This document shows positions 11,467 to 22,618 of a DNA stretch of 64,000 bases, in pieces. How positions within the stretch are numbered: the stretch's first letter is position 1; each line of letters starts with the position of its first letter. The stretch is from Candidatus Moraniibacteriota bacterium. GTDB taxonomy: Bacteria > Patescibacteriota > Minisyncoccia > Moranbacterales > UBA2206. The position numbers and the translations under genes were made by a program. Below the pieces are notes generated by a model. The model made no database searches, was not told the DNA's origin, and saw nothing but the letters and a program-made list of their open reading frames with translations. The DNA is taken from the NCBI GenBank assembly GCA_049304095.1, contig JBAQNU010000024.1:87644-151643 (forward strand), written 5' to 3'.

Positions 11467-11964
11467 ATGAATCTATCATTACCAGTCCATTTGTCTATCC
11501 ATATTTTTTTCAGTCTTTGTGCAGGACTAATTGTTTGGCGCATTTGGAAAAAACCGCTGGTCGCTTTTGCTGGTGGTATTTTGGGTGGGTTTTTGGTTGA
11601 CCTAGATCATTTCATTGACTATTTTCTAGCTTTTGGTTTTGATTGGAGCTGGTTCTATTTCAAAAACGCCTTTCAAGTTCTAAAATCAGGTAAAATTTAT
11701 GTCTTGCTTCATGGTTGGGAATTTGTGACGATTTTACTGCTTTTAGTGTTTTTGTTTAGGAATAAATATGCTAAAACTATTTTTCTCAGCCTAGCAATTG
11801 GACTCTTCTTTCATCTCTGGGCTGATGTTGTGATTGATGATGTTACGCCAAAAGCCTATTTCCTAACCTATCGCATAAAACATAATTTCAATAACAAAGC
11901 CATTAGTAGCCCGGAAAATTATGAAAAATATCTCTATTATAGAGTTCAAGCGGGGTTTGAATAG
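11467..11964 (+). CDS. Hypothetical 4-TM membrane protein
   Basis: ORF with hydrophobic segments; no recognised motif. Confidence 0.4.
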   Translation: MNLSLPVHLSIHIFFSLCAGLIVWRIWKKPLVAFAGGILGGFLVDLDHFIDYFLAFGFDWSWFYFKNAFQVLKSGKIYVLLHGWEFVTILLLLVFLFRNKYAKTIFLSLAIGLFFHLWADVVIDDVTPKAYFLTYRIKHNFNNKAISSPENYEKYLYYRVQAGFE

Positions 11965-12013
11965 AGTTGATTTGACAATTGGCGTAAATTTGTGAAATAC
12001 TAAGCATAAGCTT

Positions 12014-12091
12014 ATGCGAAAAAATAATTTAGCAACAAAAATTAATTGCTGTTGTCTCGAAATAATATTGTCGAGAAATTTTTGTTGTTGA
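12014..12091 (+). CDS. Candidate 26-codon leader peptide MRKNNLATKINCCCLEIILSRNFCC (five Cys codons) upstream of cysK
   Basis: ATG sits inside the perfect 14-bp palindrome gcataagcttatgc. Cys codons are at 12047-12055 and 12083-12088. The ORF overlaps alternative hairpin arms tctcga (12055-12060), tcgaga (12071-12076) and the terminator arm tctcgac (12123-12129). Confidence 0.45.
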   Translation: MRKNNLATKINCCCLEIILSRNFCC

Positions 12092-12122
12092 TTATTCTAA
12101 GCCTAAACTCATAAACAAACTT

Positions 12123-12148
12123 TCTCGACCTGGTCGAGATTTTTTTTA
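12123..12148 (+). terminator. Intrinsic terminator / attenuator hairpin tctcgac-ctg-gtcgaga followed by 8 T, 20 nt upstream of the cysK start
   Basis: 7-bp GC-containing stem with a 3-nt loop and a U8 tract; its 5' arm is complementary to the upstream tcgaga at 12071-12076 (candidate antiterminator). Confidence 0.6.
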
Positions 12149-12168
12149 ATTCTTAATTACTAAATCAA

Positions 12169-13068
12169 ATGATCTATAAAAATATAATTGAAATGATTGG
12201 CAACACGCCAATGGTGAAAATTAACAAACTCAATCCCAATTCTAATGTGACAATTCTAGCCAAATTGGAAGGAAGTAATCCCGGTGGAAGCATCAAAGAT
12301 CGCATTGCGCTCAAGATGCTGGAAAAGGCTATTTTGGAAAAAAAGCTAACGAAAGATAAAACGATTATTGAACCGACCTCAGGAAACACCGGCATCGGCT
12401 TGGCTATGCTTGGCACAGTTTTAGGTTATGCGGTGGAAATTGTGATGAGCGAAGCAGTTTCAGCGGAAAGAAGAAAAATGATTAGTGCTTTTGGCGCCAA
12501 AATTATCCTGACTGATCCGCAAAAAGGTACAGACGGTGCGATCATCAAAGCGCGTGAGCTGGTGGCAAAAAATCCGCAAAAATATTTTATGCCCGATCAA
12601 TTTTCCAACTCTGGCAATATCGCGGCGCACTATGAGGCAACGGCAGATGAGATTTGGAAAGACGCTGATGGCAAGGTGGACTATTTGGTTTCCAGTATTG
12701 GAACTTCCGGCACGATTATGGGCGTTTCCAAGAGGCTAAAAGAGCTTAATCCTGAAATAAAAATTGTCTGTGCCTATCCGGAAAAAGGCCACTATATCCA
12801 AGGGCTCAAAAACATGGAAGAGGCAATTGTGCCTAAAATCTATGACCGCGCAAAGATTGACGAGTTTATTACGATTGAAAGTGAGAAGGCCTTTGAGATG
12901 GTGCGACTTTTGGCCAAAAATGAAGGACTGTTTGTGGGAATGTCTAGTGGCGCGGCAATGCTGGCCGCACTGGAAATGGCGAAAAAAATCAAAAAAGGCC
13001 AAATCGTGGTAATCTTTCCTGACCGCGGAGAAAAATATCTCAGCACGGAGCTGTTCGGTATGAAATAG
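12169..13068 (+). CDS. cysK: Cysteine synthase (O-acetylserine sulfhydrylase, CysK/CysM family)
   Basis: PLP-fold motifs GSIKDR and PTSGNTGIGLAM; 299 aa. Confidence 0.85.
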   Translation: MIYKNIIEMIGNTPMVKINKLNPNSNVTILAKLEGSNPGGSIKDRIALKMLEKAILEKKLTKDKTIIEPTSGNTGIGLAMLGTVLGYAVEIVMSEAVSAERRKMISAFGAKIILTDPQKGTDGAIIKARELVAKNPQKYFMPDQFSNSGNIAAHYEATADEIWKDADGKVDYLVSSIGTSGTIMGVSKRLKELNPEIKIVCAYPEKGHYIQGLKNMEEAIVPKIYDRAKIDEFITIESEKAFEMVRLLAKNEGLFVGMSSGAAMLAALEMAKKIKKGQIVVIFPDRGEKYLSTELFGMK

Positions 13069-13133
13069 CTAAATTTGAACAAATTTAACAAAAGCGCTAT
13101 AATTGAGAAAGATTAAATATTAACTAAAAAAGC

Positions 13134-20508: not shown

Positions 20509-20801
20509 ATTACCAAAGAAATACACTAAGGAAGAAGAAATTTCTGGCTACATCACATAACAACGCATATCTGGCTACAGGAAATTGACCAAAGCGATTC
20601 AAGGAGTGTCAATTTCCCTTCGCCCAAATTTTCATTCCTTAGTTTTGATGAAGGTTTAGGCGGGGATAATTAAATAAAGCTTTGTCTGAAATCAAGAGTC
20701 TATCCTGCTAAGTCGGGATGAAAACTTCAGATGATGCGTAAACGTTGTGGCGAAATAGATTTTTTTGTGTTTGCGAGAAACCCCAAATCCGATTATAATA
20801 A

Positions 20802-20830
20802 CAGCAGAGAGAAATCTCTGCTGTTTTTTT
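20802..20830 (+). terminator. Intrinsic terminator cagcagag-agaaat-ctctgctg followed by 7 T, ending immediately before the ATG of the ABC exporter
   Basis: Perfect 8-bp stem and T7 tract. It lies inside the listed ORF 20765-22618, whose true start is therefore ATG 20831. Confidence 0.6.
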
Positions 20831-22618
20831 ATGCAAATTATTATGCCAAAAGAAGTAGAAGCAAAAATTGATCTAAGGAGTTTTTGGAAGCATATTTGGA
20901 AACTTCTGGAGCCAAGTCAAAAACAGATAAAACACTTGCTCGTTTTGATTATGGCAATGGAGGTTGTGCGCTTGGCTGGTCCCTATATGCTCAAATTAGT
21001 AATTGATAAAATTACTCACTTTGACGTGGCCCAGCTCGGAGGCGTTTTATTTTTAGTGGGAATGATGTTTCTTATCAATCAAATTCTTTCATTGACTGAT
21101 TATATAACGGATATAAAAATATTTAACATTTTCGTGGACATTGACGCCTATTTAGCCAACAATGCTCACAAAAAAATGGTTTTTTTGAGTTTGGGTTATC
21201 ATGAAAAAGAAAATACTGGCAGTAAAGTCATCAAAATAACTCGCGGTATTGATAAGATTGATGGTTTGTTTGGTGATTTTTGTTGGGAGGTAGCGCCAAC
21301 TGTTTTTCAAATCATCCTAACGACAGTTACCCTTTTTGTGGTTAACTGGCGTTTTGGATTGATCATTTCGATCTTTGTGCCTATCTTTGTTTTTCTTACT
21401 CTGCGTGTTAATAGACTGGTGTTTCCTTTTCGCAAAAAACGGTTTGATGAGCAGGAGGTGGCGGCAAGTCTCATGACTCAATCAATCATCAACATCAACA
21501 CGGTGAAATCTTTTGTAGCGGAAATGCGTGAATATACTAAATTTTCTCAAGCAACAAAAAATGTAAAAAACAGTGTGCTTAAGGAATATGGCAAAATTAT
21601 CCAATATAACGTAGCTCGAAACCTAGTAATTGATCTTGGGCGCGCGTTTGTTTTGATTTTTGGCATTTATCTTGTGATTAAGGGGCAAATCACCATTGGT
21701 AGTATCGTTTTTGTCTACACTATTTCGGAAAAAGCCTTGCTATCACTGTTTCGCATCTCGCGCCTCTATGATCGCATTATGGAGTCCAGTGAAGCGGTTG
21801 AACGCCTATATGCACTGTCAATCGAAAAAGAGACCATCAAAAATAATCCCAGGGGGTTGAAACCAAAAAATATCGAGGGTACGATTGAGTTCAAAGACCT
21901 ATCGTTTTGTTATGCGGATAGCGATAACCGGGCACTTGATAGGGTAAGTTTTACGATTGGTTCTGGCTGTGTAACGGCGCTGGTTGGTCCGTCGGGCGGA
22001 GGGAAGACTACGGTTGTCCGGATGCTCTATCGGCATTATGATCCCGCGAGCGGACAAATTCTTTTGGATGGACATGATTTGCGCGACTATGATCTCTATG
22101 CTTTTCGCCGTTTTATGGCGATTGTTCCTCAGGAAGTGGAAATTTTTGATACGAGTGTGCGAGAAAACATTGCTTATGCTAAAGCTAACGCAACGTTGGC
22201 AGAAATAAAAGCGGCGGCGCGCATTGCCAATGCCGAGGAGTTTATCTTGCAATTGAAAGATGGCTATGACACGACAGTTGGAGAGCGCGGAATCAAGCTT
22301 TCTGGAGGACAAAGACAACGCGTGGGAATTGCTCGAGCAATTCTGGCCAATCCGCGCATTCTTGTTTTTGACGAAGCAACATCTAGCCTTGACTCCTATT
22401 CGGAACGACTCATTCAAGATGCTATGGATAAAATTAGCAAAAATAGAACGGTGATTGTGATTGCTCATCGCTTAAGCACAATCAAAAAAGCGGACAAGAT
22501 CATAGTTCTCGAACGAGGAAAAGTGGTTGAGGCGGGCAGTCACCTAGAATTGTCTCATATGGCTGGCGGACTTTATCATAAATTGATCAAGCTGCAAGAA
22601 GTGGGGGATGTGGAATAA
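20831..22618 (+). CDS. ABC transporter, fused permease/ATPase (MsbA/lipid-A exporter-like, type I exporter)
   Basis: 6-TM domain followed by Walker A GPSGGGKTT, signature LSGGQRQR and Walker B ILVFDEATS. Confidence 0.8.
   Translation: MQIIMPKEVEAKIDLRSFWKHIWKLLEPSQKQIKHLLVLIMAMEVVRLAGPYMLKLVIDKITHFDVAQLGGVLFLVGMMFLINQILSLTDYITDIKIFNIFVDIDAYLANNAHKKMVFLSLGYHEKENTGSKVIKITRGIDKIDGLFGDFCWEVAPTVFQIILTTVTLFVVNWRFGLIISIFVPIFVFLTLRVNRLVFPFRKKRFDEQEVAASLMTQSIININTVKSFVAEMREYTKFSQATKNVKNSVLKEYGKIIQYNVARNLVIDLGRAFVLIFGIYLVIKGQITIGSIVFVYTISEKALLSLFRISRLYDRIMESSEAVERLYALSIEKETIKNNPRGLKPKNIEGTIEFKDLSFCYADSDNRALDRVSFTIGSGCVTALVGPSGGGKTTVVRMLYRHYDPASGQILLDGHDLRDYDLYAFRRFMAIVPQEVEIFDTSVRENIAYAKANATLAEIKAAARIANAEEFILQLKDGYDTTVGERGIKLSGGQRQRVGIARAILANPRILVFDEATSSLDSYSERLIQDAMDKISKNRTVIVIAHRLSTIKKADKIIVLERGKVVEAGSHLELSHMAGGLYHKLIKLQEVGDVE

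Follow-up and report, generated by a model that had tools for sequence, protein, structure and literature searches.

The 64,000-nt stretch of DNA analysed here (the window; positions 87,644 to 151,643 of contig JBAQNU010000024.1, from a Candidatus Moraniibacteriota bacterium) encodes a cysteine synthase of the CysK/CysM family, hereafter cysK, which is preceded by a 204-bp intergenic leader region (11965-12168) that an initial annotation had read as a candidate cysteine-sensing attenuator. This leader contains a short open reading frame (ORF) rich in Cys codons, referred to as the mini-ORF, and four complementary segments, referred to as regions 1 to 4, which pair in alternative combinations (1:2, 2:3 and 3:4). 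The features of the locus are listed below with the evidence for each, where MFE denotes the minimum free energy.

11467-11964: small membrane-protein gene, the upstream neighbour (weak YdjM match)
12014-12091, + strand: leader peptide ORF, 25 codons plus TGA, MRKNNLATKINCCCLEIILSRNFCC (ORF call)
12023-12060, + strand: region 1, the 5' arm of the 1:2 protector hairpin, with an outer part at 12023-12043 and the inner tctcga at 12055-12060 (MFE and centroid folds, inverted repeat, pair counts)
12047-12055, + strand: Cys cluster 1, TGC TGT TGT, codons 12-14 (proposed stalling site)
12070-12096, + strand: region 2, with two alternative partners, namely region 1 (through 12071-12096) and region 3 (through 12070-12082, reaching to about 12089) (folds, inverted repeats)
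12083-12088, + strand: Cys cluster 2, TGT TGT, codons 24-25, adjoining the stop codon and within the 3' extension of region 2
12117-12129, + strand: region 3, the antiterminator 3' arm AAACTTTCTCGAC, whose last 7 nt are the terminator 5' arm
12133-12139, + strand: region 4, the terminator 3' arm gtcgaga (7-bp stem)
12140-12147, + strand: T8 tract completing the intrinsic terminator, 21 nt 5' of the cysK ATG
12169-13068, + strand: cysteine synthase of the CysK/CysM family, 299 aa, the gene under proposed regulation

The Cys-rich mini-ORF that had been reported at 12014-12091 was found with all of its parts, including TGC TGT TGT at 12047-12055 and the two further Cys codons before the stop. Cys accounts for 20% of its residues, compared with 0.94% of the residues in the long ORFs of the window, and at this background the probability of at least five Cys in 25 amino acids is about 3e-6. 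Runs of three Cys codons (TGY x 3) occur at only three sites on both strands of the 64-kb window, and the two sites outside the leader (58982 on the + strand and 58378 on the - strand) were rejected as further leaders, there being no short ATG-started ORF around them. The absence of a Shine-Dalgarno (SD) sequence before the mini-ORF was dismissed as an argument against its translation, because genes in the window generally lack one: of the 40 genes that encode 200 aa or more, only 4 are preceded by an SD-like motif (GGAG/GAGG/AGGA-like, no more than 20 nt upstream). The cysK gene itself has no SD, and the start codons of the window are preceded instead by A/T-rich sequence, for example at 12149-12168 and 13114-13133. 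A strong SD is present at certain other Patescibacteria cysK genes, such as that of locus L037.

The stem tctcga/tcgaga and the terminator tctcgac-ctg-gtcgaga both lie exactly where they were originally placed. The terminator (tctcgac at 12123-12129, loop ctg, gtcgaga at 12133-12139) comprises 7 pairs, of which 4 are GC, closed by a 3-nt loop, with a free energy of -8.2 kcal/mol; the run of eight T that follows it is also present, but ends at 12147 and not at 12148, leaving 21 nt rather than 20 before the cysK ATG. The alternative hairpins are real and mutually exclusive, although the first description underestimated their sizes. The stem formed by tctcga (12055-12060) and tcgaga (12071-12076) is only the tip of a protector hairpin of about 27 bp extending over 12023-12096, and the antiterminator is a 13-nt helix of 92% complementarity between 12070-12082 and 12117-12129, which extends into 12084-12089. 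Within the 1:2 hairpin, Cys cluster 1 occupies the internal loop, 14 nt 5' of region 2. Compared with shuffled sequences, the antiterminator of the window has a z-score of -4.5, and the leader as a whole has an MFE of -33.6 kcal/mol against -21.4 +/- 3.7 kcal/mol for shuffles (z = -3.3). The stabilities of the three helices, at approximately -21 (1:2), -16 (2:3) and -8 kcal/mol (3:4), follow the order required by an attenuation model.

The effect of a ribosome was mimicked in folding by forcing a 28-nt stretch to remain single-stranded. The free RNA of the window folds into the 1:2 hairpin and the terminator; placing the A site on the first or the third Cys codon of cluster 1 produces the 2:3 antiterminator with loss of the terminator, and placing the ribosome on the stop codon allows the terminator to form. 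Folding of the alternative structures thus reproduced both outcomes anticipated in the initial annotation, namely that a ribosome stalled at the Cys cluster frees the antiterminator and a ribosome at the stop codon permits the terminator, and it did so for the window and for most of the orthologous leaders described below. All features of a trp/his-type attenuator that are testable in silico are present at this locus: an ORF, its Cys codons, a terminator, exclusive helices, appropriate geometry and a cognate biosynthesis gene.

The interpretation favoured here, with a probability of roughly 0.8, is that the leader is a trp-type ribosome-mediated transcription attenuator predicted to sense charged tRNA-Cys and to control cysK in response. 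This interpretation joins elements whose presence, exclusivity, energetics, geometry, conservation and covariation were computed directly to a transcription start, mini-ORF translation, ribosome-polymerase coupling and Cys response that are inferred. Transcription would begin a few nucleotides before the mini-ORF. In an untranslated transcript, region 1 would hold region 2 (approximately -21 kcal/mol), and the 3:4 hairpin with its U8 tract would terminate transcription before cysK. When Cys is plentiful, the ribosome would reach the end of the ORF and cover region 2, leaving region 3 to pair with region 4, which would again lead to termination. When charged tRNA-Cys is scarce, the ribosome would stall at codons 12-14 and cover region 1, so that region 2, situated 14 nt downstream, would be free to pair with region 3 as it emerges (approximately -16 kcal/mol); this pairing would block the terminator (-8 kcal/mol) and the polymerase would read into cysK.

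Conservation was assessed at 19 loci of Moranbacteria and of other Patescibacteria or metagenome contigs, which between them have 17 distinct leader sequences; they comprise closer loci (L001-L008, L081, L082 and L083) and more divergent ones (L037, L044, L055, L084, L085, L088, L089 and L091). The 17 orthologous leader ORFs have 16-32 codons, contain 12-26% Cys and include a CCC or CCCC run, which is replaced by C-x-C-x-C in L044, and most of them also carry a C-terminal Cys or Cys run before the stop (FCC*, CCCI*, CCCG*, FFC*, VC*, where the asterisk marks the stop). At the Cys sites only TGT and TGC alternate, the stop codons vary between TGA, TAG and TAA, and the N-terminal halves of the ORFs differ in both sequence and length. 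All 17 leaders have an ATG-started ORF in the Cys frame; in the other two frames the same site is spanned by one in only 5 of 34 cases. The restriction of changes to TGT/TGC, the varied stops, the divergent N-termini and the frame-specific ORF indicate selection on translation rather than on the RNA alone.

The geometry of the switch is retained along with the ORF. When region 4 is omitted, the terminator 5' arm pairs in all 17 leaders with part of the ORF, beginning 10-17 nt (in most cases 14-17 nt) past the final Cys codon of the run; the stop codon is located 0-19 nt beyond the core of region 2. A hairpin followed by a T-run (T4-T9) is kept in every leader, and the antiterminator has z-scores of -2.1 to -4.5 against shuffles in 13 of the 14 leaders tested. 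The closest sequence, metagenome contig L081, is 95% identical in DNA to the window over 4.3 kb and differs from it at 4.1% of positions over that length, and its leader shows two substitutions and one extra T, none of which falls within the ORF or the stems. The genes preceding the leader differ from locus to locus, indicating that the element goes with cysK and not with the preceding gene. This association is also evident from the distribution of Cys-codon runs: TGY x 3 occurs within 250 nt upstream of cysK in the sense orientation at 25 of 152 loci and in the antisense orientation at none of the 152 (Fisher p = 2e-8), its density is 0.98 per kb upstream of cysK compared with 0.056 per kb elsewhere, and 30 of the 37 short ORFs containing CCC in the window and all loci DNA examined are directly upstream of cysK.

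Covariation was counted in an 11-row MAFFT alignment that was not fitted to any structure, and a 17-row alignment agrees with it. In helix 2:3, 81% of cells are paired, compared with 33-55% in controls with the partner slid 1-3 columns along, and changes on both sides occur in 7 of 13 pairs (16 cells), a level reached by 0 of 500 shuffles. The inner 1:2 stem and the 3:4 terminator are likewise 81% paired, compared with 20-55% in slid controls. The shuffle control is inflated by the kinship of the sequences, and the slid controls and independent lineages provide the stronger argument. TCTCGA/TCGAGA in the window corresponds to TCTCGG/CCGAGA in L003 and to GCTCCCGAAA/TTTCGGGAGC in L085, and its counterpart in L037 is GCTCT/AGAGC, accompanied there by GCTCTCGG/CCGAGAGC for 3:4 and 2:3. 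The Cys-codon mini-ORF, the terminator and the alternative pairing, whose conservation in relatives had been suggested as a check on the annotation, are therefore all conserved, with compensatory changes.

Upstream of the mini-ORF there is a promoter-like arrangement, and a palindrome lies downstream of it:

11972-11977, + strand: -35-like hexamer TTGACA (consensus match only)
11993-12001, + strand: extended -10-like TGaAATACT, with the hexamer AATACT at 11996-12001 (consensus match)
12004-12017, no strand: perfect 14-bp palindrome gcataagcttatgc spanning the mini-ORF ATG, probably incidental

The TTGACA hexamer had been recognised, with coordinates one position too low (11971-11976), and its -10 partner, TG-n-AATACT, located 18 nt downstream, had been missed. 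Together, TTGACA-18-AATACT matches 10 of 12 consensus positions, with TG before the second hexamer. The end of the -10-like hexamer is 12 nt from the mini-ORF ATG, and the usual 7-nt distance would place the transcription start at about 12008-12009, giving a predicted 5' untranslated region of about 5 nt. A TAnnnT hexamer lies exactly 6 nt 5' of the mini-ORF ATG in 7 of the 17 leaders (L003, L004, L006, L083, L044, L055 and L089), representing four independent lineages, which suggests that leaderless transcripts, like those of mycobacteria, may serve for the translation of these sensory mini-ORFs. The mini-ORF of L003-L008 begins just 5-8 nt past the stop codon of the preceding gene. The perfect 14-bp palindrome around the ATG exists as described, at 12004-12017, but its proposed role as an operator is unsupported: the window has 9 perfect palindromes of 14 bp, including this one, it is absent from the orthologous leaders except for the near-identical one of L081, and the predicted start would put only its right half in the transcript.

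In some of the relatives the stretch between the terminator and the cysK ATG contains an insert of about 180 nt, always at the same position but of two unrelated kinds, one in L003 (2816-3000) and L006 (2827-2998) and the other in L004 (2825-3000), L007 (2825-3000) and L083 (1826-2000). Each kind has terminal inverted repeats, folds as a single long closed hairpin (-34 and -51 kcal/mol), matches no Rfam family and has no further copies in the loci examined. They are either insertions resembling miniature inverted-repeat transposable elements or a second structured leader element.

Several observations weigh against attenuation of the kind proposed. In L005, L037 and L055 the terminator is retained at equilibrium with the ribosome on the Cys cluster, so that the switch in these leaders would have to be kinetic, with region 3 meeting region 2 before region 4 exists. 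The leader is absent at other Patescibacteria loci with a similar cysK (L009, L012, L035, L045, L066 and L076). Cys cluster 2 lies in the 5' arm of the antiterminator, where the model predicts that a stall would favour termination, and its conservation is unaccounted for; as a matter of speculation, its slow codons could hold the ribosome on region 2 until the polymerase completes regions 3 and 4, and the second cluster might add a timing or hold function outside the classical model. RNAalifold found no consensus structure in the raw 17-row MAFFT alignment, likely owing to three helices competing for the same columns and to four misaligned divergent rows, and explicit pair counts on named structures were used for this reason. 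To our knowledge, transcription-translation coupling has not been demonstrated in Patescibacteria, and the host is uncultivated.

Other explanations account for parts of this evidence. The same mini-ORF could sense Cys with an output that is translational, as in mycobacteria, or Rho-dependent, since experimental work on Cys leader ORFs has been confined to ones that act on translation (10.1101/834739), the actinobacterial Cys leaders lack terminators (PMC1262725), and the mini-ORF is, like those of mycobacteria, probably leaderless or nearly so. This is nevertheless improbable, because the canonical hairpin and T-run are kept in 17 of 17 leaders and, as regards translation, because the switchable helix overlaps the bases of the terminator and not the start region of cysK, which has no SD to sequester, and the terminator is about 180 nt away from the cysK ATG in L003, L004, L006, L007 and L083. 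A comparably small chance is assigned to a translation-independent RNA switch, such as a riboswitch or a site for a protein or tRNA, in which the ORF would be a by-product of U/G-rich stems. Alternative terminator/antiterminator folds are typical of riboswitches, and the residues L-E and S-R-N-F of the leader peptide are encoded by stem nucleotides, so pairing can explain their conservation. However, Rfam gave no matching family: at gathering level (window and four loci) there was no leader match and one tRNA elsewhere, a permissive search (E <= 10, 11800-12300) yielded no credible match and only chance-level hits to snoR135 and the terminator part of MicC, and the T-box and S-box/SAM riboswitch covariance models did not match the leader. 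The structure consists of simple helices only, with no conserved junction resembling a ligand pocket, and its best conserved element is the Cys run in an unpaired loop, which shows synonymous variation only. The ATG-started ORF in the Cys frame is found in 17 of 17 leaders despite their divergent N-termini, compared with 5 of 34 for the other frames, and its stop codon keeps a fixed relation to region 2.

The C-terminal of the two conserved Cys clusters is not needed by the attenuation model, and this could point to a functional Cys-rich micropeptide, metal-binding or redox-active, which is co-transcribed with cysK and whose hairpins are ordinary processing or termination signals; certain leader peptides do act in trans, as is indicated for peTrpL (PMC7298713). 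Beyond close relatives, however, conservation is limited to the Cys codons and the stem-encoded residues, the length ranges from 16 to 32 aa and the remaining residues vary, and the ORF always overlaps the switchable helices before cysK, making this explanation less probable than either of the preceding two; a trans function would in any case add to attenuation and not replace it. Least probable, to the point of being very nearly negligible, is a leader that has no role in regulation, being either a chance ORF beside a constitutive terminator or what is left of a palindromic mobile element. AT-rich intergenic DNA does yield many small ORFs and hairpins, an imperfect 19-nt direct repeat (D1) flanks the hairpin, and palindromic inserts occur at this locus in relatives. 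Chance is contradicted by the Cys content (P about 3e-6), by the recurrence of the design in 17 distinct leaders behind differing upstream genes, and by the covariation and the strand-specific enrichment upstream of cysK. D1 was rejected as a target-site duplication, as its match of 15/19 is at chance level, being expected about once in a region of this size by our own estimate, and the relatives are without it. Transcription attenuation through a translated, Cys-sensing leader therefore remains the preferred reading.

The identity of the regulated gene is supported by a match of its product to TIGR01136 cysKM (NCBIfam) at 372 bits, above the cut-off of 344, and to PALP at 3.8e-72. Among species-representative genomes, the closest cysK proteins are those of Candidatus Moranbacteria/Moraniibacteriota metagenome-assembled genomes (MAGs), at 72-79% protein identity. 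Enzymes of this cysK/cysM type share 68-74% identity among the Candidate Phyla Radiation (CPR), DPANN and Thermoplasmatota archaea, Bacteroidales, Dehalococcoidia and others, which suggests frequent horizontal transfer among anaerobes. Elsewhere in the window, at 20771-20830, a promoter-like TTGCGA-17-TATAAT is followed immediately by an 11-bp hairpin and a T5 run ending 5 nt 5' of the ATG at 20831; here the terminator of the preceding gene and the promoter of the following one probably overlap.

Many cysK loci in Archaea that encode the same clade of enzyme contain very short ORFs that end in four Cys codons and a stop (CCCC-stop), including METKLCCCC, MKPNQCCCC, MLKQICCCC, MDKNDCCCC and similar forms. 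Their sources are Thermoplasmatota (L042, L049 and L059), Woesearchaeota (L065) and Aenigmatarchaeota MAGs, together with metagenome contigs that have archaeal-looking TATA boxes (L103, L114, L128, L130, L140 and L143). The CCCC-stop mini-ORFs are at the following positions.

L021: 2673-2726
L042: 1498-1527
L049: 2886-2915
L059: 2891-2938
L065: 2913-2942
L103: 1498-1557
L114: 148-177
L128: 1918-1947
L130: 1355-1384
L140: 813-842
L143: 1884-1925

These mini-ORFs have the form M-x(3-14)-CCCC-stop and lie 53-85 nt 5' of cysK. Several start about 25-30 nt past a TATA-like 'tttaaata', and TTCTT often follows the stop; their transcripts are probably leaderless, judging from this spacing. Sequence beyond the stop pairs with the first half of the ORF in L065, L128 and L143 (z = -2.0 to -2.8), a similar hairpin in L114 is non-significant (z = -1.3), and the Thermoplasmatota versions show no significant fold. 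T6-T8 runs follow the hairpin in L065, L114 and L143 but not in L128. The archaeal mini-ORFs may thus mediate Cys-sensing, ribosome-mediated control in Archaea. We know of no established example of a ribosome-mediated amino-acid-sensing attenuator in Archaea, and the literature searched for this analysis contained none; if the suggestion is true, the mini-ORF sensors would be such attenuators, and the question is directly testable. It is possible, though rather doubtful, that the leader in the window represents a cross-domain module in which one cysK clade (about 70% identity across CPR, DPANN and Thermoplasmatota) travels with a poly-Cys mini-ORF. Poly-Cys mini-ORFs accompany cysK in some lineages only, and none was seen at Bacteroidales or Chloroflexota loci. 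A further, conserved mini-ORF, MFSD(K/N)FCCC, occurs in antisense orientation in three Thermoplasmatota loci (- strand; L049:1966-1995, L059:1972-2001 and L130:436-465), and in L049 is situated on the opposite strand in the gap between thioredoxin (1332-1751) and uracil-DNA-glycosylase (1999-2787) genes. It was rejected as a leader because no long ORF comes after it.

Almost nothing is known of gene regulation in Patescibacteria, which are uncultivated organisms with reduced genomes. A conserved attenuator in this group implies that ribosomes closely trail RNA polymerase in their cells, that mini-ORFs which have no SD and are probably leaderless are translated, and that cysK serves regulated Cys synthesis. 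The leader family would constitute a compact and portable sensor of Cys-tRNA. No report of leader-peptide attenuation in Patescibacteria was found in the literature, and this is the first regulatory RNA of its type in CPR bacteria that we could find.

Attenuation keyed to Cys had been considered unusual, and it is rare, but precedents exist (PMC1262725, 10.1101/834739, PMC8632094, PMC4007540). Cys leader peptides were predicted before cys/cbs operons of Actinobacteria by Seliverstov et al. 2005 (PMC1262725), who recognised no terminators and left the mode of action open or suggested that it was Rho-dependent, and a leaderless 10-aa leader peptide with two Cys was reported before cysS of Deinococcus deserti by de Groot et al. 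2014 (PMC4007540). The actinobacterial and Deinococcus leaders resemble the present one in being short ORFs with runs or pairs of Cys for which attenuation was proposed; unlike it, neither has the full four-region design.

The leaderless polycysteine ORFs of mycobacteria, which include Rv2334A upstream of cysK1-cysE, were established by experiment as Cys-responsive translational attenuators (Canestrari et al. 2020 Mol Microbiol, 10.1101/834739), and these authors regarded attenuation for Cys mediated by upstream ORFs (uORFs) as previously undescribed. A literature search limited to 2019 and later, on cysteine uORFs together with transcription termination and cysK, yielded only mycobacterial work. 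The present leader shares with these ORFs the consecutive Cys codons before genes of Cys metabolism including cysK, the proposed use of stalling as the sensor and, probably, a leaderless or nearly leaderless start. In mycobacteria, however, the Cys tract is C-terminal and base-pairs with the SD region of the gene that follows, control is translational and there is no intrinsic terminator, whereas in the present leader the main Cys tract is in the middle of the ORF in the 1:2 loop, the switch is between terminator and antiterminator, and cysK has no SD.

A similar general design is seen in uORFC-8-2 (Brewer et al. 2021, PMC8632094), located before cysS of Rhodobacterales, in which two tandem Cys codons (at about positions 14-15) lie in a first stem and an intrinsic terminator comes next. 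Both are predicted Cys-keyed, ribosome-mediated transcription attenuators with tandem Cys codons in a stem and an intrinsic terminator. The target of uORFC-8-2 is cysS, its hosts are Alphaproteobacteria, it has two Cys codons and no explicit covarying antiterminator has been described for it; there is no evident sequence relationship between the two leaders, which are set apart by description, target gene and host.

In its architecture the leader follows the Yanofsky model of the enterobacterial trpL, hisL, leuL, thrL and pheL leaders, with a 1:2 protector, a 2:3 antiterminator and a 3:4 terminator with a U tract. As in classical attenuators, about 15 nt separate the regulatory codons from region 2, and the stop codon is beside or inside region 2. 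In the E. coli trp leader, region 2 lies just past the leading edge of the stalled ribosome, which is the arrangement seen here. The leader differs from classical attenuators in its predicted sensing of Cys and control of a single cysteine synthase gene, in having a mini-ORF that has no SD, is probably leaderless or nearly so and carries a second Cys cluster at its end, and in its Patescibacteria host, and it shows no sequence homology to them and no Rfam match. Earlier Cys leaders are without terminators, act on translation or control cysS, while this one would represent a complete four-region Cys attenuator before a cysteine synthase gene; the mechanism is classical, and the combination of amino acid, target gene and host is new.

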